Positions 9,371 to 59,223 of a stretch of 64,000 bases of DNA are shown here, in pieces. Source of the stretch: Dehalococcoidia bacterium (lineage in GTDB: Bacteria; Chloroflexota; Dehalococcoidia; Bin125); assembly GCA_963555985.3 (NCBI GenBank), contig OY820591.1, forward strand, positions 2,368,001-2,432,000, written 5' to 3'. The position numbers and the translations under genes were made by a program. The notes under the pieces are model-generated. The model made no database searches. It saw only the letters and a list, made by a program, of their open reading frames with translations, and was not told the origin of the DNA. Within the stretch, counting starts at the first letter, position 1. The number at the start of each line of letters is the position of its first letter.

Positions 9371-11910
9371 CGCTCTCTGATCTTCCGCTTACCGGTTCGG
9401 TCGTCATCGACCTGAGCGACGAGTGCCTTTGCCTGGGCGCACGCTGGCTCGCCGACTTTGGCGCGGATGTGATCCGGGTCGAGGCGTCGTCGGGCGACGC
9501 GCTGCGAATCAACGGGCCGCATCTGGACGGCCGAGAGGATGTCGAGAGCGGGCTGCGGCATCTGCTTTACAACGCGGGCAAGCGCAGCCTCGCGCTGAAC
9601 TTCGATGCGCCGGGCGCCTGGGATTTGATCGATCGGTTGCTCAGCCGGGCGGATGTCGTGTTTGCACCGCTCGAGAAGTCGGCGGCGCGGCGGTTCTTCG
9701 ATCGCGAGCGATTGTTGCGAGTGCATCCTCATCTCGGCGTGATCGACGTAGTCACCCGACGCGGTGGTGAGGCATTGCCTGCGTCCGACATCGTAGGTGT
9801 CGCAGCCGGCGGTCTCATGCAAGGCCTGGGATTCCCCGACGTCGCCCCCGACTATCCGGCAGGCAAGCTGGCCTACAAGCAGGCCAGCCAGGTGGGAGCA
9901 GCGACCGCCGTCGCAATGCTGTTCGATCGCCAGGCTGGCACCCGTGCCAGTCACGCTTACATCTCGCTCCAAGAAGCGATCCTCTCGACCACGATCCACT
10001 TCGCTAACGAGAACCTGTGGCGTCAGATGGGCGAGAAGGCGTTTCGTCCTGGCGGTGAGATCTCGTCTCTCGTGCAGGCCAAGGACGGCGAATGGCTGAC
10101 ATTTGGGATCACGCCCAACACGCACGATCGCTGGGCGGCGTTTGGGCAGTGGCTCTATGAGCGATCTGGATACGACGGTCTGATCGGGGCGGAGTATCCG
10201 GGCGATATCTACATCCCGGAGTGGGGCGGCGAGACGCATCGGGCGTTCCAACAAGCCTGTGCGTCGCTGGACAGAGAAGAACTGTGTTACGAGGGTCAGT
10301 CGCGGGGGTTCCTGGCGGTGCCGGTCAACTCGGCGCGGGACATTGTTGAGGATCCGCATCTGCATGAGCGGGGCGCGTTCCTGGCGGTGGAGCATCCGCA
10401 GTTTGAGCGGAGCATTGATTTGCCGCGTCTGCCGATTCACTCGACGGAGTATGAGCCGGTCGGCCGGCCGGCGCCGGCCCTCGGTGCGGATTCGGCGGAT
10501 GTGTTGGCTGAACTCCTACACATCGATGCCGAGGGGTATGGTCGTCTACTCGCGAACGGTCTGGTCGCAGGGCCACCCGTCCCCGCCTCCGAGCGGGGAC
10601 CCGTTCCCCCTCCGCGCGAGGTACCTCAGCAGATAGCGAGCGAGGCGTCGAACGGGTCCCCGATTGAATCGGGGACGGGAACCTCGGGACAGCGCGACGC
10701 CATCGACCGAGACGACTTACCGCTCAAGGGCATCCGCGTGATTGATTTCTGCTGGCAGGCGGCGGGGCCGTTGACCACGGAGTTGATGGCCAATCTGGGC
10801 GCGGATGTGATCAAGATCGAGTCGGACGCTCGGATCGACACGCTGCGGGTGGCGCTGCCGGCGCATGATCCGCCGACGATTGAGACCGGCGCGTTCTTCC
10901 AGGACTGCAACACCGACAAGCGCAGCATCAACCTGAATCTTGGAGCTCCCGACGGGTTGCGCGTGGCCTACGACCTGATCCGCGAGGCGGATGTGGTGAC
11001 CGACAACTTCACCGGCGGCGTGATGAAGCGACTCGGTTTGGGCTACGACGACCTGAAACAGATCAACCCGCGCATCGTCGTTTGCAGCTTGCCGGTGATG
11101 GGTACCTGGGGTCCGAAGGCGTCGTGGAAGGGGATTGGTAACAGCGTGGTCGCGCTCTGCGGGTTGGCGGCCCACACCGGCGCGGCCGATCGCAAGCCGA
11201 CCGGCGTGCTGCTGCATACGGACTTCACGCTCGGACCGTTGGCGGCGGCGGCGATCGTCTCCGCGCTGATCCAACGCGAGCGCACCGGCGTTGGCCAGGA
11301 GATTGAGATTCCGCAGTATGAGGCGGGGATTCATCTGCTCGACACCGAGCTCATCGAGCAATTGGCAAATGGCGTCACACCGAAGCGGCGCGGCAACCGC
11401 TCGCCGGAGATGGCGCCGCACGGTCTCTTCCGCTGCGCCGGCGACGATCGCTGGCTCGCGCTGGCCGTCCGCAACACGGTCGATTGGCTCGAGCTGTGCC
11501 GGGTGATCGGTCGTGACGATCTGGCTGCGCGCGACGATCTACGCACACTGGAGGGTCGCAAGACGGCAGAAGACGAGCTCGAGGCGGCGATCAGCGCTTG
11601 GACGTGTGGTCAGGATGTCTGGGAGGCAACCGACTTACTGCAACAGGCAGGCATCCCGGCGGGGCCGAACGAGGACATTGAGGATCTGGTCGAAACCGAT
11701 CTCTCGATACGCGGGTTCTTCCACGAGTTCGATCATCCGGTAGGGATCAAGTTCATGGCGCAGAACCAACCGTTCCTCTGGAACGGCAAACGGCTCCCGA
11801 TCCGGCGAGCGCCCTTCTTCGGCGAGCACAACGAGCAGGTCTACCGCAACGAGTTGGGCTTGAGTGAGGAAGAAGTCACGCAACTAATCATCAATGAAGT
11901 GATCCGCTAG
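9367..11910 (+). CDS. Fused two-domain family III (CaiB/BaiF) CoA-transferase
   Basis: Two LADFGADVIRVE / MANLGADVIKIE modules, NAGKRS and NTDKRS, AP.LG..(S/N) termini. Confidence 0.92.
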   Translation: MTLSDLPLTGSVVIDLSDECLCLGARWLADFGADVIRVEASSGDALRINGPHLDGREDVESGLRHLLYNAGKRSLALNFDAPGAWDLIDRLLSRADVVFAPLEKSAARRFFDRERLLRVHPHLGVIDVVTRRGGEALPASDIVGVAAGGLMQGLGFPDVAPDYPAGKLAYKQASQVGAATAVAMLFDRQAGTRASHAYISLQEAILSTTIHFANENLWRQMGEKAFRPGGEISSLVQAKDGEWLTFGITPNTHDRWAAFGQWLYERSGYDGLIGAEYPGDIYIPEWGGETHRAFQQACASLDREELCYEGQSRGFLAVPVNSARDIVEDPHLHERGAFLAVEHPQFERSIDLPRLPIHSTEYEPVGRPAPALGADSADVLAELLHIDAEGYGRLLANGLVAGPPVPASERGPVPPPREVPQQIASEASNGSPIESGTGTSGQRDAIDRDDLPLKGIRVIDFCWQAAGPLTTELMANLGADVIKIESDARIDTLRVALPAHDPPTIETGAFFQDCNTDKRSINLNLGAPDGLRVAYDLIREADVVTDNFTGGVMKRLGLGYDDLKQINPRIVVCSLPVMGTWGPKASWKGIGNSVVALCGLAAHTGAADRKPTGVLLHTDFTLGPLAAAAIVSALIQRERTGVGQEIEIPQYEAGIHLLDTELIEQLANGVTPKRRGNRSPEMAPHGLFRCAGDDRWLALAVRNTVDWLELCRVIGRDDLAARDDLRTLEGRKTAEDELEAAISAWTCGQDVWEATDLLQQAGIPAGPNEDIEDLVETDLSIRGFFHEFDHPVGIKFMAQNQPFLWNGKRLPIRRAPFFGEHNEQVYRNELGLSEEEVTQLIINEVIR
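10576..10679. repeat. Inverted pair of GTCCCCG hairpins inside the CoA-transferase linker
   Basis: CCCGTCCCCGCCTCCGAGCGGGGACCCGTTC ... GAACGGGTCCCCGATTGAATCGGGGACGGG. Left arm is the reverse complement of 3601-3631 with 3 mismatches. Confidence 0.8.
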
Positions 11911-11977
11911 CGCGCCTTCAAATTGACGGTCGCCAGGCCAATCTTTGATCGTCACTCTCGCCATTGTCGCACCGACA

Positions 11978-12110
11978 CCGTCATACCCGCGCTTGCCGCG
12001 GGTATGACGGTGAGTCGAGCACGGAGGTCGTCGCCAACACTGCGAGATTGCCGCGACGGAGCGCGGCAATGACGGAACTATCGACTCGCGCGCAAGTCTC
12101 CAGAGAGGGA
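11978..12110. repeat. REP-doublet-like element (GTCATACCCGCG / CGCGGCAATGAC family)
   Basis: CCGTCATACCCGCGCTTGCCGCGGGTATGACGG ... GAGATTGCCGCGACGGAGCGCGGCAATGACGG ... GCAAGTCTC, between convergent genes. Confidence 0.85.
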
Positions 12111-12137
12111 AGTGGGTATACCCGCAGCTCCCTTGAG

Positions 12138-13253
12138 CTACGGATTGAAGAGACCTTCCGCCTCAGCGTCGTTGCCGATCTCCCGAATCAGGCCCAGAAA
12201 GTCGGCCAGAGAACCAGCCCGATCGCGCAGCGCAAACAGCCGCTCGCCCCAGGGCGTGGTTGAGGCGGGATTCGCGCCGTAGGCGCCGCTAAACGCAAAA
12301 TAGGCCTGGTTGATACGGCGAATGTTCCTGCCCATCTCTACCAGCCGGAGGCGTGTTTCCTCCATCAGCGCCTCAGCCGCTGCGATCTCTCCCTGCTCGA
12401 GCAACGCATCCACTTCGAGTCTCAGTGTCCGCAGGATCGGATCGGTCGCGGAGCGAATGGCCTCCCGCGCGGCTGCCTCCGCGCGCGCCGCTGCGGACAG
12501 CGGCTGCGGATATCGCGCAGTCGTGAGTTCAGCCAGTTCGTCGCCCACGATGTCGCTCGCCGTTTCGTTGATCGTGCGCATCGTGCCGCTCCGCGCGTAG
12601 GCCTGTCCGAGCGGATAGAAGGCGAGATAATGGTGCGACCATTCATGCGCGATCAGTTGCAGCGCAGACCGATAGTCCCGTGTGCTCACGACCAGCGCTG
12701 GATACAAGGCGACCCCGCCCACAGTTGTCACCAGCGCCGAGCGTTGGCGATCAGCTTCGATCGCCGACTCGATCGCCGCGAAATCGCCGCGCGGAAGTTC
12801 GGCTTCGAGTAGCACGGACGCCGTCAACCGAATTTCCTCGCGGGGCGAGACCGCGAGTACCCGCAAGGGAGGCTTGAACTCAATGTCGACCGGAGGCCAG
12901 ACGACGTGCTGATGCTTGAACAGCGGCAGCGGCGTCGCAAGCCCGGCGGCGCGAATCGCTTCGCTCAGACGCCGTTCGAGGATGCGCTCGACGCGATTGG
13001 CGTCGTTGGCCGGCCGCGACTCGAACCAGCGCGCCAGGATCGCCTCTTCGTCTTCTTCGCTCCCGTCAAACCACTCTGCAACCTGCGTCAACCAGTGATT
13101 GGGCAGGTGCGAGAGCTCGTATTCGAGCAAGCTGAAGCGGTGTTCACGTGTCGCGTCCGCGATCGACGTATTGGCCGCGACCCGGATCGTGACGACCGCG
13201 ATCACGGCGGCGCTGAGCGCAACCAGCGCCCCGGCGGTGAGCGTGCGCCTCAT
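12138..13253 (-). CDS. Membrane-anchored/secreted putative gluzincin Zn metallopeptidase
   Basis: N-terminal hydrophobic helix, IAHEWSHH (HExxH) with downstream INET glutamate. Confidence 0.6.
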   Translation of the reverse strand: MRRTLTAGALVALSAAVIAVVTIRVAANTSIADATREHRFSLLEYELSHLPNHWLTQVAEWFDGSEEDEEAILARWFESRPANDANRVERILERRLSEAIRAAGLATPLPLFKHQHVVWPPVDIEFKPPLRVLAVSPREEIRLTASVLLEAELPRGDFAAIESAIEADRQRSALVTTVGGVALYPALVVSTRDYRSALQLIAHEWSHHYLAFYPLGQAYARSGTMRTINETASDIVGDELAELTTARYPQPLSAAARAEAAAREAIRSATDPILRTLRLEVDALLEQGEIAAAEALMEETRLRLVEMGRNIRRINQAYFAFSGAYGANPASTTPWGERLFALRDRAGSLADFLGLIREIGNDAEAEGLFNP

Positions 13254-13302
13254 CGTTCGATGGTACGCTCGTGGCCGGATGGCGGTGCGACGAGGCGGCG
13301 CG

Positions 13303-13728
13303 ATGGCGGACACGGACTGGCGACCCGCCCGGCGTGAAGCGAAGGCGGTCGCAGGCGCGATTGATCTAGTCGTCGTGGCGCTGCTCGGAGCAGTCTTCGC
13401 CATGCTGGGCTTCCTGATCATGCTGATTCAGGTCAATCCGCTGGAGCGCGACCCCACCGGCGGTGAGTGGGCGCTGGGCTATGCGATCTGGCTGCTCTGG
13501 ATCCCGGCCGCGGCGATCTATGCCGCGCTCGGAGACTGGACGCTCGGCGCGCGCATGATCGGTCTGCGCCTAGAGCGGCGACGCTGGGACGCGCTCGCTC
13601 TGCGCGGACTGCTCTGGTGGCCGTCCCTGATTGCACTCGGCGTGGGCCTGTGGTGGAGCTGGGTCGACCGCGAGGGACGCAGCCCGGCGGATATCGTCAG
13701 CGGCGCGGGGATGCTCGAGCGGCGGTGA
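13303..13728 (+). CDS. RDD-family membrane protein
   Basis: AGAID, TLGARMIGLR, DREGRSPADIVSG, TM segments. Confidence 0.72.
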   Translation: MADTDWRPARREAKAVAGAIDLVVVALLGAVFAMLGFLIMLIQVNPLERDPTGGEWALGYAIWLLWIPAAAIYAALGDWTLGARMIGLRLERRRWDALALRGLLWWPSLIALGVGLWWSWVDREGRSPADIVSGAGMLERR

Positions 13729-14576
13729 GTACCCTCCAGCTGCCGCCGCAGCCCGCGCGCCGCTTGACGGCGCGATCACGGGAGACCGTACGCGAGCGGC
13801 GTTGGCGCTGGTGGCTGCTCGGCCTGCTTGCCGCCCTCACCGCCGTCGTAACCGCAGCGGCAGTGGTCTGTTTCTCCGCGATGCAGCTCAGCGAACGCGG
13901 CAACGCTGAGACGCTCATGACCCGAGTCGTGCGTGCCCTGCTGGAGCCGGACCGCTACGTCGCCAATGCATGGCCACGCTTCACGGAAGAGGCGAGCAGC
14001 GGCGCGCCGATCCCGCTGAGCGGCTGGCCGCTCGAACTCACGCTCGCGCCGGGGGCGCTGGAGCAAGGGCAGCAGGCTGTCTCGGATGCCCTCACCGCGA
14101 CAACTGCTCGCACGCTCTATGAGCACGGCTTCGACGCCCTCCAAGATCAACCCCAGGCGAGTCGCCTGTTCTCGCAGGCATCCGCCTTCAGTTCCACCGT
14201 TGGCCGGCTGACCAGCGGCGGACACGCCGTTGCGACCGTTGCGCTAGTGGTGTCCGTTGCTCTCTTGGTCGGGCTCGCCCTCGCCACCGCCGCGCAGGCG
14301 CGCGGAATGGGGCGGCTCGCCGCGCCGGGCATCGCCGTCGCTGTAGGCGCAGCGGTGTTGTTGCTCGGAGCGGAGATCGCAGAATCGGCTTTCGGAGATC
14401 GCGCGAACGCAAGTCTCGATCCGTTTATGACCGACATGTGGATGATCGCTGCCGACGCGACCGCCGTCGTCAGCCGCAACGCGCGGATTGCCGCTCTCTT
14501 CGGCGGCGCGCTCAGCCTGATTGCCCTCTTCGGCTGGATGGCGTTGCTCTGGCTTGACGACCGGCGCGCACGTTGA
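13725..14576 (+). CDS. Hypothetical membrane protein
   Basis: GTG overlaps the upstream stop (GTGA). One N-terminal and about three C-terminal TM helices. Confidence 0.65.
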   Translation: MSTLQLPPQPARRLTARSRETVRERRWRWWLLGLLAALTAVVTAAAVVCFSAMQLSERGNAETLMTRVVRALLEPDRYVANAWPRFTEEASSGAPIPLSGWPLELTLAPGALEQGQQAVSDALTATTARTLYEHGFDALQDQPQASRLFSQASAFSSTVGRLTSGGHAVATVALVVSVALLVGLALATAAQARGMGRLAAPGIAVAVGAAVLLLGAEIAESAFGDRANASLDPFMTDMWMIAADATAVVSRNARIAALFGGALSLIALFGWMALLWLDDRRAR

Positions 14577-14616
14577 GCCGTGTCCGCTCCGCAACTCTCC
14601 CGCGAGCGGGACTGCC

Positions 14617-14626
14617 TGTGTACGAT
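14617..14626 (+). promoter_or_regulatory. Extended -10 promoter element for tRNA-Gly
   Basis: TGTG-TACGAT about 15 nt upstream of the tRNA. Confidence 0.4.
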
Positions 14627-14641
14627 GCAGAGAGCATGAGT

Positions 14642-14716
14642 GCGGGAGTAGCTCAGTGGTAGAGCATCTGCTTCCCAAGCAGAGGGTCGCGGGTTCGAAT
14701 CCCGTCTCCCGCTCCA
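14642..14716 (+). tRNA. tRNA-Gly(CCC)
   Basis: GCGGGAG/CTCCCGC acceptor stem, AGCTCAGTGGTAGAGC D-arm, TCTGC-TTCCCAA-GCAGA anticodon arm, GGTTCGAATCCC T-arm, encoded CCA. Confidence 0.97.
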
Positions 14717-14758
14717 GCACGTGAGCTGTCGAACAGACTGAATCAGTGAGGTAGACCG

Positions 14759-15940
14759 ATGGAACTGCGATTTTCCGAGGCCGAGGAAACCCTGCGCGGC
14801 GAGGTCCGACAATTCCTGCTCGACCACATCCCCGAACCCGCTTCCAGCGAAGGTCCCGGCGGCGCCCGCGAGAACGATGAGGACTTCGAGAACGCCAAGG
14901 CCTTCAACACCAAGCTCGCCGAGCGCGGCTGGATTGCTCCCGCCTGGCCCAAGGAATACGGCGGTCTGGGCGCCTCGATCTACGAGCAGATCGTCTTCAA
15001 CGAGGAGTTCGGCTACCACGGCGCGCCCGACACCGGCACCCGCGGCTTCGGCGTCGGCATGATCGGCCCGACTCTGATCATCCACGGCTCCGACGAGCAG
15101 AAGGAGCAGTACCTGCCCAAGATCACCTCCGGCGAGCACATCTGGTGCCAGGGCTACTCCGAGCCCGGCTCCGGCTCCGACCTCGCCTCGCTCCAGACTC
15201 GCGCCGTCCGCGACGGCGACGACTACATCATCAACGGCCAGAAAATCTGGACCTCCGGCGGTCACCGCGCCAATCAGATGTTCTGCCTCGTCCGCACTGA
15301 CCCCGACGCGCCCAAGCACCGCGGCATCTCCTTCCTCTTGATCGACGACATCAAGAACACCCCCGGCCTCTCCGTCCGACCGCTGATCAACATGGCCGGC
15401 CGCCACCACTTCAACGAGGTCTTCTTCGAGGACGTCCGCGTCCCCGCCAAGAACCGCATCGGCGAAGAGAACCGCGGCTGGTACGTCGGCATGACCCTGC
15501 TCGACTTCGAGCGCTCCGGCATCGGCACCACCGCCGGCCAGCGCCGCACCCTCGAAGGCATGACCGAAGAGCTCCAGAACGACGCCGCCGAGAGCCGCAA
15601 CCGCTACCGCCTCGGTCTCGCCGATCTCGTCGTCGCCAACAACGTGGCCAAGTACCTCGGCTACCGGATCGGCCACATCCAGGCCTCCGGCGAGGTACCG
15701 AACTACGAGGCCTCCGTGATCAAGATCTTCCAGTCCGAGCTGGGCCAGAAGATCTACAACTACGGCATCAGCATGTTCGGCCTCAGCGGCCAACTCATCC
15801 CCGAAGAGCCGACCGCCCCTTGGGCCGGAGACATGCCCGAGCAATACCTCCTGGCCGTCCCCAGCACGATCTACTCCGGCACCAACGAGATCCAGAGAAA
15901 CATCATCGCGACTCGTGGTCTGGGATTGCCGCGCAGCTAG
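14759..15940 (+). CDS. Acyl-CoA dehydrogenase (FadE26/FadE29-like)
   Basis: WCQGYSEPGSGSDLASL, NGQKIWTS, FNEVFFEDVRVP, IYSGTNEIQRNII. Confidence 0.95.
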   Translation: MELRFSEAEETLRGEVRQFLLDHIPEPASSEGPGGARENDEDFENAKAFNTKLAERGWIAPAWPKEYGGLGASIYEQIVFNEEFGYHGAPDTGTRGFGVGMIGPTLIIHGSDEQKEQYLPKITSGEHIWCQGYSEPGSGSDLASLQTRAVRDGDDYIINGQKIWTSGGHRANQMFCLVRTDPDAPKHRGISFLLIDDIKNTPGLSVRPLINMAGRHHFNEVFFEDVRVPAKNRIGEENRGWYVGMTLLDFERSGIGTTAGQRRTLEGMTEELQNDAAESRNRYRLGLADLVVANNVAKYLGYRIGHIQASGEVPNYEASVIKIFQSELGQKIYNYGISMFGLSGQLIPEEPTAPWAGDMPEQYLLAVPSTIYSGTNEIQRNIIATRGLGLPRS

Positions 15941-15968
15941 CCCCGCAAGCGTCGCAGAGGAGCGCGAG

Positions 15969-16364
15969 GTGGAGATCACCTACGCCGTCCTCTGCGACGC
16001 CGCCAACCTCAGCGACGACGGCCGACTCAACGTGCTGGGCGCGTTCAATGTGCTGTACGCGGAGGACTTTCCTCACGTTCATCCGGCGATGTCTCTGGCG
16101 CTGCAGTTCGAGGTGGAGCCCGATGACGCCGATCAAGTGCATGAATTCACGTTGCAACTGGTGGATCCCGACGGCGACCTGACCCACGAAAGCTCCGTCT
16201 TTGTCGAGACCATCGGGTCAGTGAATGAGGGCCGGGCGTATCGGGTGCCATCCTTCGAGAAGATTGGGAATGCCTGGCATCCGACACCTGGGGACTATGA
16301 ACTGCGTATCCTCTACCAAGGTGGCCTCATGGCGATTGTCCCATACGAGGTCCTGCGCCTGTGA
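15969..16364 (+). CDS. DUF6941-like small beta-rich protein
   Basis: LCDAA...GRLNVLGAF...P, LVDPDG, PGDY pattern. GAGGAG RBS. Confidence 0.7.
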   Translation: MEITYAVLCDAANLSDDGRLNVLGAFNVLYAEDFPHVHPAMSLALQFEVEPDDADQVHEFTLQLVDPDGDLTHESSVFVETIGSVNEGRAYRVPSFEKIGNAWHPTPGDYELRILYQGGLMAIVPYEVLRL

Positions 16365-16615
16365 CGTCTTGGGAGGAGAGTCAAGTGCCAGAGGAACGTT
16401 GGCCGCCAACGCCGATCCGCATGAAGTCGACCCGTCGCCGCGTGAACTTCAAGCGAGGATATGGCTATGTCGGCACGCACTCGCCAGAACGCGATGATCA
16501 CGTGAAGATGTTGTTCAAGAACGCCAGCGAGTACGAGCACTTCATCCTCTCGGAAGCAGAGCGTATTCGCGGGCGGGATCGTCAAGGCGATTCTAGTGGG
16601 GAGGCTGCCGGCTGA
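16361..16615 (+). CDS. Small hypothetical protein
   Basis: GTGA overlap with the upstream gene, 84 aa, no recognisable motif. Confidence 0.4.
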   Translation: MTSWEESQVPEERWPPTPIRMKSTRRRVNFKRGYGYVGTHSPERDDHVKMLFKNASEYEHFILSEAERIRGRDRQGDSSGEAAG

Positions 16616-16627
16616 GATCCTGTGTTG

Positions 16628-17590: not shown

Positions 17591-17693
17591 CTTGATCTCC
17601 CGTCCATCTTCCCGCGAACATAGCGAACTCCAGGCAGACTGCGCTTATCTTCCCCCATGAGCGGGTGATCAGCCCCCGCCGAGGGAGACTCAT

Positions 17694-18482: not shown

Positions 18483-18518
18483 GCCGATCCGCTCAAATCC
18501 GAAGTGAGGAGATTATCG

Positions 18519-19307: not shown

Positions 19308-19319
19308 CCCCACCTCCCC

Positions 19320-19530
19320 ATCTCCCCCTTGAGGGGGAGATGCCCCAGAGGGGCAGAGAGAGTGAAAACGCCGCGACCAGCACAGACAACCCAACCCCAG
19401 CTCCCCTCTCCCCCCCTTTGCGGGGGGAGATGTCGCGCAGCGACAGAGGGGGTCCGCCTCTCCCTGGCATCCCCGCCCCAAACAAGTTCCGTCATACCCG
19501 CGCCCCGTCGCGGGTATCTCGCCGTGACCA
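19320..19530 (-). repeat. Cluster of palindromic elements (two CCCCCTCTG elements plus a GTCATACCCGCG hairpin) in reverse orientation
   Basis: Reverse complements of the elements at 40666, 44858/45765 and 45977/58785. Confidence 0.85.
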
Positions 19531-19636
19531 GCACCCAACCCTCTGCCAACCACGACACACCCCCAAATTACCCACCCGAACACCCATCCATATAAGATCA
19601 AGTGTCCTTCATTGAGCAAGAGAGGAACCCCGACCC

Positions 19637-47066: not shown

Positions 47067-47084
47067 GGCGATTTCCTCCGTTGG

Positions 47085-48785: not shown

Positions 48786-48907
48786 GTCGTTACTCAGCGT
48801 AAGGCCGCGCAGTGTCTGCGCAGAGGGTCAGGATAATCGGAAGGCGGCGGGGGCGCTGTTGCGTTGGTGTCGTGCGCCTGCGTAGGAATGGCGGCAAGGG
48901 GAGGGTG

Positions 48908-51460: not shown

Positions 51461-52311
51461 CAGGCGGGCCGCATCACCGCGACGCCGACGGTGCCGGGTC
51501 CAACGTGTGCGCCGATCGCGGGGCTGGTGAGAACGGTCTCGACGGGCATTCCGTCGCAGGCCTGGGAGATTCGTTGGGCGAGGGCGTCAGCGTCGTTCGG
51601 GGTGGCGCCGTGGAGGATGCCGACGCGCTGGGGCTGTCCTTCGGCCATGATGTGTGTGAAGAGGCGGTCGAGGGCTTTCTTGCGGGTGCGGGGGCGTTCG
51701 ATGTCGATGATTTCGCCGTCAACGAGTTCGAGCAGTGGTCTCATGCGGAGGAGGCGTCCGGCGAGGTGCCGGGCGCGCCCGATGCGTCCGCCGCGGAGGA
51801 GATAGTCGAGGGTTTCGACGAAGACGAGGATGCGAACCTGAGCGGCGGTGTCGCGCGCGGCCTGGGCAGCTTCGGCGGCGGTCGCTCCGGCTTGGGCGGC
51901 TGCGAGCGCGGCTTCGGCGGCCCAGCCAACGCCCAATGATGCGGAGAGGGTATCAACAACCTCGACCTTGACTCCGTTTTCGAGCAGTCCTGCGCCCTGG
52001 CGGGCGGAATTGACGGTGCCCGAGAGCTTGCCGCTGACGTGAACGGAGACAATTTCGTCCACATCCTCGCTGGCGGCAAGTCCGGCGTAAGCGTCGCGGA
52101 AAGCGCCGGGGGCGGGCTGGGAGGTGGTGGGGAGTTCACCTCCGGCGGAAAGGGTGCGTTGCATTCGTTGCCAGAATTCGTCTTTGCCGAGGTTGACACC
52201 GTCTTCAAAGACTTCGTCGCCGAATTGCAAGTGGATGGGGACGACGTGGATGTCCGGGATCTGGCCTTGTTCGAGGTCGGAGGTGGAGTCGGTGACGATG
52301 GCGACGGACAT
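51460..52311 (-). CDS. DegV family fatty-acid-binding protein (FakB)
   Basis: IVTDSTSDL, TSQP, SGKLSGT, LDYLLRGGRIG, HVGPG. Confidence 0.93.
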   Translation of the reverse strand: MSVAIVTDSTSDLEQGQIPDIHVVPIHLQFGDEVFEDGVNLGKDEFWQRMQRTLSAGGELPTTSQPAPGAFRDAYAGLAASEDVDEIVSVHVSGKLSGTVNSARQGAGLLENGVKVEVVDTLSASLGVGWAAEAALAAAQAGATAAEAAQAARDTAAQVRILVFVETLDYLLRGGRIGRARHLAGRLLRMRPLLELVDGEIIDIERPRTRKKALDRLFTHIMAEGQPQRVGILHGATPNDADALAQRISQACDGMPVETVLTSPAIGAHVGPGTVGVAVMRPA

Positions 52312-52450
52312 GTGCTTTGTGTCTCTTTCGCGGCCGGGCCCAGCGGGTGTCGCTATGGGCGCGGGGATGGCTTGGCCTGCACGATTACCGTAGCGAACGG
52401 GGTTGGTCTTGCGGGTGTTGGGGATGGCGCGGCGACGGCGATCCGGGCGG

Positions 52451-52500
52451 ACCCCCCTCTGTCACTTCGTGACATCTCCCCCCGCGATGCGGGGGGAGAG
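52451..52500 (+). repeat. CCCCCTCTG two-hairpin element
   Basis: ACCCCCCTCTGTCACTTCGTGACATCTCCCCCCGCGATGCGGGGGGAGAG. Confidence 0.88.
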
Positions 52501-52521
52501 TGGCTGTGGTTGCTTACTGCT

Positions 52522-54141
52522 CTATTCGAGGGCCAGGAGCCAAGGGTAGTGGGGTTGTCCGCCGGGGATGAGTTCGACTTCGAGGTCGGTGGCGTTGGCG
52601 ATGGCTTGGGCGAGTTCTTCGGCTTGGTCTTCGGTGATGTTGTCGCCCCAGTAGAGGGTGAGCAGGGAACCGTCTCCGGATTGGGCCATGCGCGCGGCTA
52701 GGGAGAGTGCGACTTCGGTCGAGGTTTGGCCGGATTCGACGATTTGTCCGTTGAGCATGGCGAAGGGTTGGCCTTGCCGGAGAGGGGTGTCGCCTTCGAG
52801 GGTGCGGGCGGCGTAGGTGACCTGGCCGACGCTGACGGCGTCGAGGCCTTCGGTCATTTCGGAGACCACATCTTCGACGGGGACACCGCCGATGACCGAG
52901 GCGAGAGCGGCGACGCCTTCGGCCTGGCTGTCGGTGTCGATGATGTGGAAGCGCTGGGCGTCGTCGGCTGCGGCGGCGAGTTCTCCGGCTCGCTGGGCGG
53001 CGGGGGTGACGTTGTGGTGGTTGGGGAGGACGATGACGTCTACTCCCTTCACCGACTCGGCGGCTGAGAGGAGCATTTCGACGGAGGGATTGTCGGAGGC
53101 GCCGCCGCTGACCAGGGCGGCTGCGCCGAGCTCGCGGAAGACTTCGACGAAGCCAGCGCCCTGGACGACAGCGACGACGGCTGGGTCGGTATCGGCCTCG
53201 TGGGTGCGCGCGGCTTGCTGGCGCATATCGACGGCGCGGAAGGCTCGGAGCGCGCCCGCTTCTGAGGCGGCGGTGTAGGCGAGTTCGGGTTCGGTGGTGT
53301 GGAGGTGGATGCGGAGATCGTCGCCGTCGGGGGCGAGCATGACGGTCTCGTCTTCGCCTTCGAGGGCGGCTTTGAGATCGTCGGGGGCGGCGACGCCGCT
53401 GACGACCAGCTCGGTACAGAAGCCGTCGAATTCGCCTTCGACATCAAGGCGACGGGCGAGCCAGCCCGGATCGATTGAGCCGAGTTCCTGGGGCAGCTCG
53501 GGAATTTCTTCACCGGCCAATGCGCCGGTCATGCCTCGGAGCATGAACTCAAGGCCTCTTGCACCGGCGTCCACGACACCGGCGTCGGCAAGGACGGGAT
53601 TTTGCTCGGGGGTGCGTTCGACCGATTCAGCGGCGGCTTGGGCGGCGATCTGCATGAGCGCGAGGGGGTTGGCGGCGCTCGCCTCGGCGACGTGTTGGGC
53701 GGTGTCGCGGGCGACGGAGATCATGGTGCCGTCGCGGGGTTCGGAGACGGCGTGCAAGGCTGCGTCGGCGGCTGCGGTCAGCGCATGGGCGAGCGTGCCT
53801 GCATCGGGAGCATCGGTGTTAGCGAGTCCGTTGGAGAATCCGCGCAGCCATTGCGCGCCGATCACGCCGGAGCTGCCGCGCCCGCCGAGCAAGGCGGCGG
53901 AGGCGGCGGTGGAAGCGACGGTGTAGGCGCTCGCGCCGGGTTCGAGTGCGTCGGCGGCCTGGAGGGCGGCGGCGAGGGTGCGTCCGAGGTTTGCGCCGGT
54001 GTCGCCATCGGGGACGGGGAAGACGTTGATCTGGTTGAGCGCCTCACGATGGAGGGCGACCCAGCCGGCGGCGCCGGCGATCATGCGGCGCATCGCCTCG
54101 CCGTCCAGCGCGTGTTCGCTTGCGCTCTGTGGTTGGGTCAT
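52522..54141 (-). CDS. DAK2-domain fatty acid kinase subunit A (FakA)
   Basis: INVFPVPDGDTG, GVVDAGARG, FCTE, NPS, GGQPHY. Confidence 0.92.
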   Translation of the reverse strand: MTQPQSASEHALDGEAMRRMIAGAAGWVALHREALNQINVFPVPDGDTGANLGRTLAAALQAADALEPGASAYTVASTAASAALLGGRGSSGVIGAQWLRGFSNGLANTDAPDAGTLAHALTAAADAALHAVSEPRDGTMISVARDTAQHVAEASAANPLALMQIAAQAAAESVERTPEQNPVLADAGVVDAGARGLEFMLRGMTGALAGEEIPELPQELGSIDPGWLARRLDVEGEFDGFCTELVVSGVAAPDDLKAALEGEDETVMLAPDGDDLRIHLHTTEPELAYTAASEAGALRAFRAVDMRQQAARTHEADTDPAVVAVVQGAGFVEVFRELGAAALVSGGASDNPSVEMLLSAAESVKGVDVIVLPNHHNVTPAAQRAGELAAAADDAQRFHIIDTDSQAEGVAALASVIGGVPVEDVVSEMTEGLDAVSVGQVTYAARTLEGDTPLRQGQPFAMLNGQIVESGQTSTEVALSLAARMAQSGDGSLLTLYWGDNITEDQAEELAQAIANATDLEVELIPGGQPHYPWLLALE

Positions 54142-54185
54142 CGTTTCATCCTCAAGGGCGCGGCGCGGTTGTGGCGTGGGTATCG

Positions 54186-54213
54186 TTGCCCGCGCGGGGG
54201 GTACTGGTATGAT
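54186..54213 (+). promoter_or_regulatory. Putative sigma70 promoter of rpmB
   Basis: TTGCCC-N16-TATGAT with extended TG. Confidence 0.45.
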
Positions 54214-54269
54214 ACGGCGCAGACGCGCTCGGAGAGCAGGGCGCGCAAGCGCGTACAAGGGCAGTGGCG

Positions 54270-54485
54270 ATGGCCGGCAAGTGCGATCTCTGCGAGAAGC
54301 GGACGAGTTTCGGACGCAACATCCGGCACAAGCACTCCGGTCGCTGGAAGCGGAAGGCGCCGCGCACGTCGCGGACCTTCAAGCCGAACGTGCACCGCCA
54401 CAAGCTGACGATTGACGGTAAGACGGTACGTCTGAACGTCTGCACTGGCTGCCTGCGCACCATGATGAAGCGGCTCGCGGCGTAA
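54270..54485 (+). CDS. rpmB: 50S ribosomal protein L28 (Zn-binding form)
   Basis: CDLC...RTFKPN...VCTGCLR, divergent from the DAK2 gene as commonly seen. Confidence 0.93.
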   Translation: MAGKCDLCEKRTSFGRNIRHKHSGRWKRKAPRTSRTFKPNVHRHKLTIDGKTVRLNVCTGCLRTMMKRLAA

Positions 54486-54661
54486 GCGCCACGGGAATTG
54501 CCGCAGATCGGATCGGACCGCTCCCTCACTGACCCAGACCGGCGGACGAAGCGTCCGCGCATCCCTTAACGACTTGTGCCCAACGGCGTGAGGGCATTTG
54601 TCCGAAGCGCCGAACTATTTTCGAGACCGCACTGCAGACCACGGAACCGAGACTGAACGAG

Positions 54662-55138
54662 ATGCGAATTTACGTCGGAAACCTGCCGTTCCGAACCACC
54701 ACGGACGAGTTGCGCGATTTGTTCGCCGAGCACGGCGTCGTGCAAGATTGCGTGATCCCGGTTGATCGCGACACCGGTCGCTCGCGCGGCTTTGGCTTTG
54801 TCGACATGGATGACGAAGAGGCCCAAGGCGCGATCACCGCGCTGGACGGCGCCGACCTAGACGGTCGCCAACTGCGGGTGAACGAAGCGCGACCGCGCGG
54901 CGGCGGTGGTGGCGGTGGCGGCGGCTACCGCGACGATCGCGGCGGTGGCGGCGGTGGCGGCGGTGGCTACCGTGAGGATCGCGGGGGCGGCTACCGCGAC
55001 GATCGCGGCGGCTATCGAGAGGATCGCGGGAGCGGCCAGCGCGGCGGTGGCGGCTACCGTGACGACCGCGAACCGCGCTACACCGATCGCGGGCGTCGGG
55101 ACAGTTACGGCGGCGGCGGACGAGAGCGCCGCTGGTAG
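54662..55138 (+). CDS. RRM RNA-binding protein with Gly/Arg/Tyr-rich tail
   Basis: RNP2 IYVGNL, RNP1 RGFGFVDM, VNEARPR. Confidence 0.95.
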   Translation: MRIYVGNLPFRTTTDELRDLFAEHGVVQDCVIPVDRDTGRSRGFGFVDMDDEEAQGAITALDGADLDGRQLRVNEARPRGGGGGGGGGYRDDRGGGGGGGGGYREDRGGGYRDDRGGYREDRGSGQRGGGGYRDDREPRYTDRGRRDSYGGGGRERRW

Positions 55139-55152
55139 ACGCTGCCGGGTCT

Positions 55153-56292
55153 TTGTCGGGCCCCGACCAGGTCCAGGTGCACGAACTTGGCTTCGGCCGT
55201 GAGGCCGAGCCGTTCATTGATGTGCTCTGGACGGTCTACGCGGACGATCCGAACTGGATTCCGACACTGCGCCGCGCTCAACGCGAGCGGCTGGATCCGG
55301 GCAAGACGCCGTTCCTGCGATACGGCCAGGCGCAGTTGTTCCTGGCCGAGCGAGGCGGGCGCGCGGTTGGCCGGATCTCGGCGCAGATCAATCCGCTGCA
55401 CGATGAGAAGTGGGGCGAACGGGCGGGGTTCTTCGGGCACTTCGACTGCCTCAACGATCCTGAAGCGGCGCGGGCGCTGTTCGAGGCTGCCGAACGCTGG
55501 CTTCGGGAGCGGGGCGCGAGTTTCGCGCGCGGGCCGTTCAGCTTCACGATCAACGATGAGTCGGGCTGTCTGGTGGAGGGCTTCGAGACGCCGCCGATGG
55601 TGGCGATGCCGCACGGACGGCGCTGGTTTCCCGAGCTGATTGAGGCGAACGGCTACGGCAAAGTCAAAGACCTGTGGGCGTATCGGTACCCGGTCGACTC
55701 AGAGTTGGAGGAGCGGCGGCAGCGGGCGTGGGAACGAATTCACGCGCATCCGCGTGTGCGGGTGCGGTCGTTCGAGAAACGAGCGCTGCGGCGTGACGTG
55801 CGGATCGCGGCGGAGATTTACAACGAGTCCTGGGCGGAGAACTGGGGCTCGGTGCCGATCACGCCGGAGGAGGCGGATCGGCTGGCGGACGATCTGGTGC
55901 AGTTCGCGGATCCGGAGCTGACAGCGATCATCGAGATCGACGGCGATCCGGCGGCGATGGTGATCGCGATTCCGAATCTGAATGAGTGCGCGCGGGATAT
56001 TGACGGGCGGCTGTTCCCGTTCGGTTGGGCGAAGCTGCTCTGGCGGTTGCGTCGGAGCCCGACAAGCGGGCGGGTGATGCTGCTAGGGGTGCGTCCGAAG
56101 TGGCGGATTCGGGAGTTCGCGCAGATTGGGGTGATGCTGACGGCGGAAGTACATGTGCGCGGTCGGGCGCACGGATATGAGTGGGCGGAGTTGGGCTGGG
56201 TGTTGGAGGACAACCGGTTGCTGAATCATCAGTTGGCGCGGACTCGGGCGGAGGTGAACAAGGTGTATCGAGTGTATGAGAAGGCGCTGTGA
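55153..56292 (+). CDS. GNAT-fold N-acyltransferase-like protein (YghO-like)
   Basis: YADDPNW.P, VGRISA, GFFG.F, ENWG..P, GVRPKWR, WVLEDN. Confidence 0.8.
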   Translation: MSGPDQVQVHELGFGREAEPFIDVLWTVYADDPNWIPTLRRAQRERLDPGKTPFLRYGQAQLFLAERGGRAVGRISAQINPLHDEKWGERAGFFGHFDCLNDPEAARALFEAAERWLRERGASFARGPFSFTINDESGCLVEGFETPPMVAMPHGRRWFPELIEANGYGKVKDLWAYRYPVDSELEERRQRAWERIHAHPRVRVRSFEKRALRRDVRIAAEIYNESWAENWGSVPITPEEADRLADDLVQFADPELTAIIEIDGDPAAMVIAIPNLNECARDIDGRLFPFGWAKLLWRLRRSPTSGRVMLLGVRPKWRIREFAQIGVMLTAEVHVRGRAHGYEWAELGWVLEDNRLLNHQLARTRAEVNKVYRVYEKAL

Positions 56293-56369
56293 GTGTGAGG
56301 GCGCGGATCGCACGATGTGAGGTCGGTGGTACGACCAGATAAGGAAGCAGCTTCGGACTTAGGAGGTTC

Positions 56370-56457
56370 GAGATTCCCGCCTGCGCGGGAATGACGGATT
56401 TTGGGGTTACGCGCAGGTCTCCTTGAGGGAGAGAGTTTCCTTCGACGCGCTCAGGCG
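56370..56457 (+). repeat. Palindromic cluster between convergent genes
   Basis: GAGATTCCCGCCTGCGCGGGAATGACGG, TTACGCGCAGGTCTC end, CTTCGACGCGCTCAGG. Confidence 0.8.
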
Positions 56458-57125
56458 GATAGGGCTTGGCGGAGGCGGGTAACGGCTTCGGTGACTGATT
56501 CGCGGTTGTTGTAGATGGCGGAGCCGGCTACTAGCCAGGTTGCGCCTGCATTGACGATCTGGTTGATGGTGGACTCGTTGACTCCGCCGTCTACGGCGAC
56601 CAGGGCTTCGGGGCGTCCGGCTTGAGCGAGCATTGCGCGGGCTTGGCGGATGCGGTTGAGGGATTCGGGGATGAAGGCTTGGCCTCCCCAGCCGGGGTTG
56701 ACGCTCATGATCTGGATGCGGTCGCAGACGGGGAGGACGGCTTCGAGTTCGGTGAGAGGGGTACCGGGGTTGAGGGTGACGCCGGCTTCTCGTCCGGCGG
56801 CGCGGATCTGTTGCAGGAGGCGGTGGGGGTGGCGGGTGGATTCGATGTGGATGGTGACGCAATCGACGCCGGCGTTGATGAAGTCGTCGAGGTGGCGTTC
56901 GGGTTCGGCGACCATGAGGTGGGCTTCGATGGGCAGTGCGGTGAGACCGCGCACGGCCTGGGCCATTTGAGCGCCAAAGGTGATGGGGGGGACGAAGTTT
57001 CCGTCCATTACGTCGAGCGAGATCCAGTCCACGCCGGCGGCTTCTGCGTCGTGGATCTGTTCGCCGAGGCGAGTCCAGTCGGCGCTGAGGATGGAGGGGG
57101 CGAGTTGGATGTTGGGGCGGCTCAC
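56451..57125 (-). CDS. rpe: Ribulose-phosphate 3-epimerase
   Basis: APSILSAD, DVMDG.FVP, MSVNPG.GGQ, VDGG. Confidence 0.95.
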   Translation of the reverse strand: MSRPNIQLAPSILSADWTRLGEQIHDAEAAGVDWISLDVMDGNFVPPITFGAQMAQAVRGLTALPIEAHLMVAEPERHLDDFINAGVDCVTIHIESTRHPHRLLQQIRAAGREAGVTLNPGTPLTELEAVLPVCDRIQIMSVNPGWGGQAFIPESLNRIRQARAMLAQAGRPEALVAVDGGVNESTINQIVNAGATWLVAGSAIYNNRESVTEAVTRLRQALSA

Positions 57126-58639
57126 TTGCGGCCTTTTCGGCGCTTCTCGTCTTTGGCTGCGGCGCGCGCGGCGGCGCGGCGGGCGGCGCGGCTGGGGCCG
57201 GTCTCCGGCTCCGGCGGATCGGCGGGCGGCGGCGGTGGAGCTTCCTGTAAGCCCAGATGCTCTTTCATTTCCTCCAGGGCGATGCGGACCTGATTGGGGG
57301 CGGTACCGCCGGGGAGATCGCGGGCGGCCAAGGCAGCTTCCGCGGTCATGCCTACGGCGTCGGCTGCGAAGGCTTGATGGCCGTCTTGGAGTTCGGAGAG
57401 GGTGAGTTGGGAGAGGCTGATTCCGCGCTGCTCGCAGAGTCGGACGAGTCCGCCGATGATGCCGTGGGCTTCGCGGAAGGGGACGCCCTTGCGGGTGAGG
57501 TGGTCGGCGTAGTCGGTGGCGAGGATGAAGGGATCGTCGTCGACCATGGCGCGGGCGCGGTCGCCGTCGACGCGGGCGGTGAGCATGGCGCGGGTGAGCA
57601 CGTGGAGGGTGCCGATCAGGGTTTCGGCGGTGTCGAAGAGGCCGGATTTGTCTTCCTGGAGGTCGCGGTTGTAGGCGAGCGGCAGGCCTTTGAGGGTGGT
57701 GAGCAGTGCGGTCAGGTGTCCGATGACCTTGCCGGTGCGTCCACGGGCCAGTTCGGCGACGTCGGGATTGCGCTTCTGAGGCATGATCGAGGAGCCGGTG
57801 GTGAAGGCGTCGGCGAATTGGAGCAGGCCGAACTCGGCTGAGCTCCAGAGGATCACGTCCTCGCAGAGGCGGGAGACGTTGACCATGCAGATCGCGGCGT
57901 TGGAGATGAATTCGAGGATGTAATCACGGGAGGAGACGGCGTCCATGCTGTTGCGGGAGATCAGCTCAAAGCCGAGATCGTCGGCGACGCCCTCGCGATC
58001 GAGCGGGTAGGCGGCGCCGGCCAGGGCAGCGCTGCCGAGCGGCATGATGTCGGCGCGGGCGAAGGAGTCGACCAGGCGCTCGGCGTCGCGGTCGAACATT
58101 TCGACGTAGGCGAGGAGATGATGAGCGAAGAGCACCGGTTGGGCGCGCTGGAGGTGGGTGTAGCCGGGGAGGTAGACATCGAAGTTGCGCTCGGCCAGTT
58201 CGATCAGGGCAGTTTGCAGGCCGCGGAGCGCGCCGGCTGCCTGGATGATGACATCGCGCACGAACATGCGGGTGTCGAGCGCGACTTGGTCGTTGCGGGA
58301 GCGGGCAGTGTGGAGGCGACCGGCGGTGTCTGCGCCGATGATCTGGGCCAGGCGGGCCTCGACGTGGGTGTGGATGTCTTCGAGTTCGTGGTTGAGCTCG
58401 AAGCCGCCCTCTTCGATCTCGGTTTCGATTTGATCGAGGCCGCCGAGGATGCGAGTGGCTTCGCGGTTGTCGATGATGTGCTGCCTGGCGAGCATCTGCA
58501 CGTGGGCGCGAGAGCCATCGATGTCGTGGCGGAAGAGGAGCAGGTCGGTAGTGATCGAGGCGGTGTAGGCCTGGACGAGTTCGTCGGGCGCTTCGTCGAA
58601 GCGTCCGCCCCAGAGCCGTTGGGTATCTGTATCAGCCAT
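57122..58639 (-). CDS. argH: Argininosuccinate lyase
   Basis: LWGGRF, RSRNDQ, GYTHLQ, GSSIMPQKRNPD, YNRDLQEDK. Confidence 0.97.
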   Translation of the reverse strand: MADTDTQRLWGGRFDEAPDELVQAYTASITTDLLLFRHDIDGSRAHVQMLARQHIIDNREATRILGGLDQIETEIEEGGFELNHELEDIHTHVEARLAQIIGADTAGRLHTARSRNDQVALDTRMFVRDVIIQAAGALRGLQTALIELAERNFDVYLPGYTHLQRAQPVLFAHHLLAYVEMFDRDAERLVDSFARADIMPLGSAALAGAAYPLDREGVADDLGFELISRNSMDAVSSRDYILEFISNAAICMVNVSRLCEDVILWSSAEFGLLQFADAFTTGSSIMPQKRNPDVAELARGRTGKVIGHLTALLTTLKGLPLAYNRDLQEDKSGLFDTAETLIGTLHVLTRAMLTARVDGDRARAMVDDDPFILATDYADHLTRKGVPFREAHGIIGGLVRLCEQRGISLSQLTLSELQDGHQAFAADAVGMTAEAALAARDLPGGTAPNQVRIALEEMKEHLGLQEAPPPPPADPPEPETGPSRAARRAAARAAAKDEKRRKGRK

Positions 58640-58647
58640 GCTTACTC

Positions 58648-58850
58648 CTCACCCTAGCCCCCGCATCAAGTGCGGGGCAGGCTCTCTCCCAGAGGAGACC
58701 TGCACGTAAGTCGATTTTTCCGCCATTGCCGCGCTCCGCCGCGGCAATCTCGCGGTGCTTGCGACGACGGCGCAGATCACGGCGAGATACCCGCGGCAAG
58801 CGCGGGTATGACGGAGCTTTGATTTACGCACAGGTCTCTTCCGGGAGAGC
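58648..58850 (+). repeat. CCTCACCC element interrupted by a CAGGCT hairpin and a 144-bp GAGACC...GGTCTC MITE (58695-58838)
   Basis: CTCACCCTAG[CCCCCGCATCAAGTGCGGGGCAGGCT]CTCTCCCAGAG[GAGACCTGCACGTAA...TTACGCACAGGTCTC]TTCCGGGAGAG. Confidence 0.82.
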
Positions 58851-58866
58851 GTTGGGGTACGGGTCG

Positions 58867-59223
58867 CTAGTCGCCGGCATCCAGCTTTGACAACCCTGCT
58901 GCGGTGATCGTGTATTCGAACTGTTCGTCGTCGAAATCGGTTGCACGCATGGTGATGATTGCGGGCGGCTCTACGCCGTCGGCGATCAAGGCCGGATAGA
59001 GTCCGCCGGCGATTGCTCGCAGCAGCGCTTGGGTCTGCGCTTCCGAGAGCGGCCCGCAGGCCGCCTCAAAGCGCTGCTTGGCGTCCAGAGCCAGATAGAG
59101 GGCGCACTCCAGGCTGCCGCGCCCTTCGCGCCGAATGTGGAAGTCGGCGGCGTCCGGGCCGCCGGCCGTCGGTGCCGGGCCTTCGTATTCGACTACTACC
59201 GTCGCCGACGCATCCGTCGTCAT
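58867..59223 (-). CDS. Hypothetical protein between argG and argH
   Basis: GGGAG RBS, co-oriented in the arg cluster, 118 aa. Confidence 0.6.
   Translation of the reverse strand: MTTDASATVVVEYEGPAPTAGGPDAADFHIRREGRGSLECALYLALDAKQRFEAACGPLSEAQTQALLRAIAGGLYPALIADGVEPPAIITMRATDFDDEQFEYTITAAGLSKLDAGD

Follow-up and report, generated by a model that had tools for sequence, protein, structure and literature searches.

Genes and features of the window

The window examined here is a stretch of 64,000 nucleotides (nt) from the genome of a member of the Dehalococcoidia, called G000 below (G000:C1:2368001-2432000), in which housekeeping genes such as trpS, argS, recG, rpe and argH are interspersed with short hairpin repeats. 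Two hairpin families are followed throughout: family A, a 9-bp stem and then the tail ATGACGG, and family B, a double hairpin of the form CCTCTG...CATCTCCC. The plus strand is rich in C and A over one segment and in G and T over another, and the hairpins change orientation with it. The results show that this reversal is a 21-kb inversion, and they confirm that repeats and strand asymmetry (skew) are co-oriented across the genome and the family and that the asymmetry sharpens next to the repeats. The features on which the argument draws are as follows, in window coordinates (aa, amino acids; ORF, open reading frame; fourfold, at fourfold-degenerate sites).

11975..12101, minus: left inversion end, a composite of two A-type hairpins, the first (11978-12010) a double-tailed palindrome; pairs with 33040-33167
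12102..33039, unstranded: 21-kb block inverted relative to three genus g7 genomes (gene order; turning it back removes six bins below -0.15)
14700..23400, unstranded: C/A-rich patch on the plus strand, inside the inverted block; fourfold skew -0.20 to -0.72, one 149-aa gene at -0.03
17694..18482, plus: enoyl-CoA hydratase copy 1 (ech1; ECH_1), 3' end abutting no repeat; last 300 nt -0.37, rest -0.53
18504..19307, plus: enoyl-CoA hydratase copy 2 (ech2), 3' end abutting the repeat cluster; last 300 nt -0.76, rest -0.27
19319..19530, minus: repeat cluster of two B-type double hairpins and one A-type hairpin; B 19425-19449 (minus), A 19489-19514 (minus); repeat cover 54-68
19547..19998 (C1:2387547-2387998), plus: copy of the repeat R550; ORF 19637-19987, 116 aa, no Pfam match
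33040..33167, plus: right inversion end, an inverted copy of the two-hairpin composite at the left end; in direct orientation to 45936-46014 and 58743-58821
40600..64000, unstranded: G/T-rich patch on the plus strand, genes of both strands; fourfold skew +0.46 to +0.89 except the RRM gene and orf58867
40666..40710, plus: B-type hairpin behind the Band7 gene (motif matches, repeat catalogue)
43027..43211, plus: A-type hairpin array upstream of the carboxyl transferase gene (direct repeats, motif and arm matches)
44858..45220, plus: B- and A-type hairpins behind the carboxyl transferase gene (repeats, motif matches, repeat catalogue)
45765..46070, plus: B- and A-type hairpin array between the F420H2 reductase gene and trpS (direct repeats, motif matches)
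48876..48894, plus: decayed half of an A-type hairpin behind recG (2 mismatches)
51075..51108, plus: B-type hairpin at the recG/DegV junction (direct repeat, motif match)
52447..52501, plus: B-type hairpin behind FakA (motif match, repeat catalogue)
56303..56423, plus: A-type hairpin between orf55153 and rpe (repeats, motif match, repeat catalogue)
58718..58838, plus: A-type composite between argH and orf58867 (direct and inverted repeats, motif match)

The G000 assembly (3.33 Mb, 65% G+C, 96.4% complete, 7.5% contamination) consists of one 3.15-Mb contig, C1, and ten small contigs, C2-C11, which are haplotigs of C1 regions at 95-99% identity and thus represent a second strain; the apparent contamination is explained by this origin. 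In aligned blocks of at least 1 kb, the haplotigs are collinear with C1, and consecutive blocks show no strand change. Genes were called with a home-made codon-position model that is blind to the choice of G or C at third positions, giving 2344 genes that cover 80% of C1, with starts less certain than stops; where overlapping frames competed in the window, the model always chose the frame with a Pfam match. An Rfam search of the window returned a tRNA at 14642-14713 and nothing else. For comparison, we used three genomes of genus g7 (G018, G013, and G006), together with G007; G007 and G018 are closed genomes from other genera of the same family and were examined as widely spread samples. Genus g7 is collinear with almost the whole window, protein identity to G000 across the region is mostly 62-96%, with a few lower, paralogue-like matches, and in four genes compared it matched or exceeded genus g8 in similarity to G000.

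Strand asymmetry within the window

Bulk GC skew in 2-kb windows ran from -0.07 to -0.20 at 14-24 kb and from +0.13 to +0.32 at 39-61 kb, and AT skew was opposite in sign to GC skew, which makes this an asymmetry of keto (G+T) versus amino (C+A) bases. GC skew at 40-53 kb was +0.18 to +0.32; most windows there had an AT skew of -0.12 to -0.27, but at 43-46 kb it was small (-0.01 to -0.06). The fourfold skew of the plus strand agreed: between 40 and 58 kb, it was positive both in genes of the plus strand (UbiA-family +0.58, carboxyl transferase +0.57, F420H2 reductase +0.60, orf55153 +0.58) and in genes of the minus strand (trpS +0.88, argS +0.81, recG +0.70, DegV +0.79, FakA +0.74, rpe +0.89, argH +0.70). 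The asymmetry is real, bound to the strand and independent of gene direction, with G exceeding C and T exceeding A on one strand, as in replication-associated skew. The initial annotation had described just such a strand-bound contrast, with a C/A-rich zone at ~12-24 kb; its extent needs trimming, as the C/A-rich patch holds for 14.7-23.4 kb, fourfold skew is ~0 at 23.4-33 kb, and the value of only -0.15 at 12-13.4 kb places the beginning of the zone at ~14.7 kb.

The G/T-rich patch contains two exceptions, a glycine-rich RRM gene at -0.48 and orf58867 (124 aa) at 0.00. The RRM gene (54662-55138, plus strand) lies within a patch at +0.7, and its G018 orthologue has a skew of -0.75; in this gene, the regional bias seems to yield to selection for C-ending codons.

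The hairpins follow the same division. All 11 A/B motif matches at 40-59 kb lie on the plus strand and both of those at 19.4-19.5 kb on the minus strand; the copy at 11978-12010 carries both tails, and the composite to which it belongs runs opposite to those at 33.1, 46.0, and 58.8 kb, so the opposite orientation of the same families at ~12-24 and ~40-61 kb stands as first reported. The half-hairpin noted beside recG likewise proved to be an A-type arm, one of six such matches in the window, all on the plus strand, where 0.04 would be expected by chance. Intergenic arrays with a 10-nt period containing GTTCG also occur at 6012-6150, 42802-42865, and 60521-60604, all in one sense on the plus strand.

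A 21-kb inversion between hairpin composites

The genes of 12.1-33.0 kb are in reversed order and orientation in G018, G013, and G006, while on either side of them (2-12 kb and 33-65 kb) collinearity and orientation are kept. The ends of the block, 11975-12101 and 33040-33167, form an inverted repeat of ~125 nt (61 nt at 85% and 65 nt at 72% identity), and in G018, hairpins are present at both corresponding junctions. When the block was turned back by coordinates, the number of bins below -0.15 fell from six to zero. The sign reversal of the window is thus shown to be a 21-kb inversion between inverted two-hairpin composites, which cuts a single G/T-rich patch, and skew and element orientation reverse together because the inverted piece kept both its skew and its hairpins. 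An inverted block was one of the two causes that the initial annotation had put forward, with a synteny check near 12-25 kb as a test, and that check bears it out. The hairpins at 19.3-19.5 kb either were turned with the block or arrived later. Reversal of skew by inversion between inverted repeats is a familiar process; unlike the usual cases, in which copies of an insertion sequence (IS) or of rRNA genes recombine, the repeats here are hairpin composites of ~125 nt. The inversion accounts for the sign of the skew, not for its amplitude or for the patchiness seen across the family.

The fully palindromic, double-tailed A hairpin found at 11978-12010 also occurs in G018 (L038:14931), at the same junction behind a CoA-transferase gene.

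Co-orientation of repeats and skew across the genome

Repeated intergenic DNA amounts to ~50 kb in G000, with 280 matches to the A motif and 128 to the B motif; these are short, high-copy intergenic palindromes, often paired or arrayed, like the REP elements of REP/RAYT systems. When the orientation of each copy was compared with the fourfold skew of genes no more than 3 kb away, 231 of 280 A copies were concordant (160/172 at |skew| > 0.3), as were 118 of 128 B copies (95/95 at |skew| > 0.3), so orientation is far from random with respect to skew. This polarity is not an artefact of composition, since family B, itself rich in C, sits on the strand rich in G. Of 12 families of non-overlapping 14-mers found de novo with at least 25 copies, nine were at least 70% polar; one was nonpolar (25/58), and in a C-rich one, 85 of 92 copies lay on the G-rich strand. 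The A motif is also present in G007, where 66 of 84 copies were concordant. Hairpins with perfect stems were the most concordant (165/203) and lay in the strongest oriented skew, while those with two or three mismatches, a class that probably includes chance matches, were concordant in 38 of 76 cases. A longer repeat, R550 (550-750 nt), comprises in each copy a leader resembling a promoter, a C- and A-rich ORF of 116 aa without a Pfam match, and a terminator hairpin; about 25 long copies are present on C1, and the strand that is locally rich in C holds 24 of the 25 longest. Co-orientation is therefore confirmed genome-wide and family-wide. In G007, a tandem array with a period of ~279 nt and one A hairpin per unit (L033, G007:C1:2970001-2990000, 13896-15354) has its hairpins discordant with a weak local skew.

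The skew itself is organized regionally. On C1, the plus-strand skews of adjacent genes on opposite strands were correlated (r = +0.51, 659 pairs), and its components were a regional strand effect with a standard deviation (sd) of 0.325 and a coding-strand effect with a mean of -0.10 and an sd of 0.155. Gene-to-gene autocorrelation at lags 1, 8, and 30 was 0.68, 0.30, and 0.04, respectively; ~101 sign runs with a median of 20 kb were counted genome-wide, giving patches of ~10-30 kb with a correlation length of ~10 kb. The samples from G007 and G018 were likewise patchy, with gene-level root mean square (rms) skews of 0.40 and 0.24, respectively, compared to 0.38 in a G000 sample. In all three genomes, keto-type asymmetry at silent sites is thus shown to form patches rather than two replichores, very strong in G000 and G007 and weaker in G018. 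Coding-oriented skew in 160 orthologue pairs was correlated at only r = 0.20 between G000 and G007, whose synteny is broken every ~10-20 kb. In the recG region, G000 has 13 A/B-type copies, including the decayed half-hairpin and an unscored copy at 45.8 kb, compared to seven A-motif matches in G007 (20-kb locus), two each in G006 and G013, and none in G018.

Several candidate explanations for the regional pattern were rejected. An initial 57-60% of genes on the C-rich strand mostly vanished once the coding-strand effect was removed, with a slight excess on that strand persisting at low skew thresholds. Many fixed origins with diffuse termini (N-domains) did not fit, as upward and downward jumps were symmetric (25 versus 20 above 0.5 in 4-kb windows, skewness 0.01). 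Transcription was set aside, as the regional component is independent of gene strand and ribosomal-protein and rpoBC genes are weakly skewed. Repeats as patch boundaries failed as well, the skew step being 0.18 across repeat-bearing and repeat-free intergenic regions alike. Within the ribosomal-protein operon (C1:2946858-2962550), which lies on one strand throughout, fourfold skew drifts from ~0 to -0.5 over 15 kb.

The second strain and the surrounding community provide a view of more recent change. G/C transversions made up 389 of the 1451 fourfold differences (27%) between the two strains; their direction was symmetric, but as it is symmetric under any model, we discarded it as a test. Community contigs compared to the reference on the plus strand gave unpolarised counts of 22, 15, 29, and 7 G>C against 1, 0, 4, and 2 C>G, which shows that close relatives in the community are less skewed here. 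Repeat differences between the strains follow the local skew at the two informative sites, C1:1857114 and C1:421442. Hairpin turnover between the strains was also seen at C1:2787263, and C1:1857114 has an A copy in one strain and a B copy in the other at the identical site.

Sharpening of skew next to repeats

On either side of the nearest A or B copy, oriented skew weakened as distance grew, being 0.45 at 100-200 nt, 0.25 at 2-3 kb, and only 0.05 at 10 kb; the rms skew was 0.39 in DNA no more than 1.5 kb from a repeat and 0.20 at distances above 12 kb. Gene ends were controlled for by cataloguing all repeated intergenic DNA and taking orientation from neighbouring genes only. Where a repeat directly follows the stop codon (398 genes), skew climbed toward the stop over the last 300-450 nt, rising from 0.21-0.30 beyond 450 nt to 0.62 in the last 60 nt where the coding strand is G-rich and from 0.46-0.53 to 0.67-0.71 where it is C-rich; in 1779 genes with no repeat within 1 kb, the profiles were flat (0.27-0.33 and 0.38-0.44). 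No rise was seen at 5' ends, which are the less certain ends in these gene calls. Classed by the repeat's own orientation, the shift was +0.110 ± 0.033 (47 genes) or -0.073 ± 0.022 (135 genes), versus +0.023 ± 0.006 (1400 genes). The initial annotation had proposed that bias is strongest beside the elements, and this distance dependence survives control for distance to the stop codon.

Orthologue pairs gave a matched comparison. With a repeat in G000 only, the whole-gene difference was -0.33 or +0.51, in the direction that the repeat predicts, and the extra shift in the last 300 nt was -0.165 ± 0.048 (36 pairs) or +0.199 ± 0.055 (13 pairs); with a repeat in the relative only (14 and 3 pairs), the shift was weak. 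Over all 67 informative pairs, it was +0.128 ± 0.034 (p = 0.0004), with 43 positive. Within the window, the plus-strand skew of the last 300 nt exceeded that of the rest of the gene in trpS (+1.00 versus +0.83), recG (+0.96 versus +0.67), rpe (+0.96 versus +0.83), and orf55153 (+0.87 versus +0.48), and ech2 changed likewise toward its negative sign; genes whose 3' ends have no repeat showed no rise (argS +0.83 versus +0.81, argH +0.64 versus +0.71, and ech1). All four ends singled out at the outset as showing this effect do so, although the supposed GNAT gene among them, orf55153, has only a weak GNAT match below the cut-off.

The two enoyl-CoA hydratases had been put forward as an internal control, and copy 2, which abuts the repeats, is indeed the more skewed at its 3' end. 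From ech1 to ech2, the last third of the alignment contains 16 G>C against 4 C>G differences and 12 G>A against none in reverse. Changes in ech2 were polarised at sites where four orthologues agree and only G000 differs: the last 270 nt hold 8 G>A and 7 G>C against 1 C>G, i.e., 15 G losses and 1 gain, and the remaining 534 nt hold 15 losses and 6 gains. The G006 lineage, which has no repeat at the end of ech2, shows six G gains and no losses, and no A or B copy lies behind the ech2 genes of the relatives. The hydratases are one of two tandem paralogue pairs here, 70-87% identical, the other being two luciferase-like monooxygenases (22318-24465); the hydratase pair spans 17694-19307, and G018 has three hydratase copies in the same place.

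Origin of the shared polarity

The closest precedents are IS200/IS605-type polar single-strand transposition and GRINS. According to the available parts of the sources, IS200/IS605 elements insert into the lagging-strand template (PMC5027513, PMC3333891), and GRINS are duplicated stretches of >500 bp at >80% identity within one gene cluster of high-GC bacteria, linked to gene conversion, with intense, correlated GC and TA skews of either sign that are not accounted for by replichores and whose mechanism is unknown (PMC8256042, 2021). The repeats studied here share with IS200/IS605 elements and the REP/BIME elements of RAYT systems that they are short, high-copy intergenic hairpins, often arrayed, and that their orientation goes with a strand-polar feature of the chromosome. 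Their bias is strong relative to local skew, but it lacks a replichore structure as reference, the polarity following patches of ~10-30 kb instead. REP elements of Escherichia coli carry a 5' GTAG guide; the conserved tail here is 3' of the hairpin. The Y1 transposase that accompanies REP elements (REPtron, REPIN) was not found in G000, which encodes one TnpB-like gene. With GRINS, the locus has in common intense skews that replichores do not explain, with mean absolute GC and TA skews >0.15 that are correlated; unlike in GRINS, no duplication of >500 bp at >80% identity lies at 46-59 kb, trpS, argS, recG, rpe, and argH are single-copy, and the skew spans such genes over tens of kilobases in the company of hairpin repeats. 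In the parts of PMC5027513, PMC3333891, and PMC8256042 at hand, no such skew patches tied to hairpin repeats are described, and a literature search on patchy bacterial skew returned nothing relevant, although the pattern may still have been published.

We favour, with a probability of about one in two, a common strand-polar process linked to single-stranded DNA, with a local boost at the hairpins. Such a process, whether fork passage, repair synthesis, or another, would expose one strand as single-stranded DNA and so deplete it of C (C>T, C>G). It would also direct the insertion of several hairpin families moving through single-stranded DNA, and repeats and skew would point alike because one polar process directs both. 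Recombination between inverted repeats would then reshuffle the patches, and hairpins may boost the same damage locally over ~0.3-0.5 kb, perhaps via stalled forks or gaps. More than 8 kb from any detected repeat, neighbours on opposite strands remain correlated (r = 0.4-0.6), with an sd(R) of 0.22-0.25 versus 0.39 beside repeats; the repeats are thus not the sole source of the skew, since repeat-free stretches keep ~60% of its amplitude. Polar local mutagenesis by the elements, the other cause raised in the initial annotation, may accordingly act at short range (the 3'-end rise, the contrast of 67 orthologue pairs, and ech2) and falls as the only cause.

Several observations weigh against this explanation. 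No switch at one origin and one terminus was found in G000: the best symmetric two-replichore fit was 0.030 (permutation p = 0.90), and with the origin fixed at dnaA, the replichore value was -0.007, compared to a bin rms of 0.21. After coding-strand correction, genes on the G-rich strand made up 44-53%, with no clear preference and hence no leading-strand excess, and the description of the elements as replication-oriented is not supported by these two results. Skew sign alternates between samples 165-190 kb apart in G007 and G018, and some collinear blocks have opposite signs in G000 and G007 (L022, L028). The collinear recG region is at 0.7-0.9 in G000 and 0.54-0.84 in G007, but at ~0 in G018 and 0.0-0.4 in G006 and G013. 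Hairpin copies are often arrayed, so that the concordance counts overstate the number of independent events. Neither a Y1 (HUH) transposase (PF01797) nor an IS110 transposase was found in G000 at its 96% completeness. Per-site transition differences between the strains are symmetric even at |skew| > 0.45 (0.0285 versus 0.0305), and private changes in R550, which fall at coding sites, run opposite to expectation on the C-rich strand (48 C>T versus 6 G>A). The R550 changes were dropped as a test together with those in the hairpin arms, both being confounded by coding constraint and the elements' own polarity.

The hairpins may instead be active strand-specific mutation sources that, according to their orientation, cause loss of C (C>T, C>G), most strongly within 0.3-0.5 kb, and build the patchy skew; this is a tentative possibility. 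In its fullest form, strand-specific nicking or exposure of single-stranded DNA would create a field of C loss fading over several kilobases, with the patches as summed fields, which we consider somewhat unlikely. Such fields would account for the missing replichores and the missing gene-strand bias, and they fit the decay of oriented skew and of rms skew with distance, the restriction of the 3'-end gradient to ends that abut a repeat, the predicted direction of the whole-gene differences between orthologues, and the parallel across genomes between motif matches per 100 kb (5.8, 15.2, and 21) and rms skew (0.24, 0.38, and 0.40), even though the three genera are not phylogenetically independent. 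They fit poorly with the strand-based skew that persists more than 8 kb from detected repeats, and with the finding that both perfect-stem hairpins and the copies that vary between strains, the latter at two informative sites, lie in DNA already strongly skewed; nor was a nuclease candidate found. The reverse order, in which skew comes first and repeats insert or survive on an asymmetric target commoner on the G/T-rich strand, or one palindrome arm decays faster, is improbable. By our own estimate, a target of four to five G would yield 80-95% concordance at the observed composition, repeats are enriched at high |skew|, and in the frame of the G-rich strand, left-arm C positions changed 23 times and right-arm G positions 3 times. 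But a C-rich word on the G-rich strand (family B), the polarity of R550, a 550-nt gene-bearing unit, and the conserved asymmetric flanks common to the copies speak against it, and the gradient cannot be a pre-existing property of the target, since orthologous gene ends without a repeat lack it.

Ordinary replication skew broken up by very frequent rearrangement, with the gradient near repeats arising from miscalled ends or decayed repeats within ORFs, would suit the inversion in the window, the breaks in synteny with G007, the classical polarity (G>C, T>A), and a skew that is negative to the left and positive to the right of dnaA. It is quite improbable, given the absent two-replichore fit and the abrupt flips in only 20 of 1667 intergenic regions, where rearrangement junctions should be sharp; moreover, stop codons are unambiguous, control 3' ends are flat, and the extra changes in ech2 fall in codons homologous to those of ech1 and four orthologues. 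Very improbable, finally, is strand-biased correction of heteroduplexes in gene conversion or polar single-strand uptake guided by the hairpins, as discussed for GRINS. The intense, correlated GC and TA skews, as reported for GRINS in the accessible part of PMC8256042, agree with it, as do the share of G/C transversions between strains, which are also the commonest difference between ech1 and ech2, and the directional community variants, although the direction of change in the latter is unpolarised. The skewed genes, however, are single-copy housekeeping genes, not duplicates. We thus retain the common strand-polar process with a local boost at hairpins as the preferred explanation.

Implications

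Skew is commonly used for origin finding and the detection of misassembly, and here, in a family of high-GC bacteria, its value at fourfold sites reaches 0.8-0.9 locally yet is uninformative on replichores. Hairpin composites of ~125 nt appear to serve as substrates for large inversions. The 3'-end rise beside hairpins is lineage-specific, with the sign that repeat orientation predicts, and should local mutagenesis be its source, the codon usage of adjacent housekeeping genes would be shaped by small mobile hairpins. If the hairpins are mutagenic, repeat turnover would rewrite the silent sites of neighbouring genes, and, if true, this would offer a mechanism for replication-independent skews such as those of GRINS.

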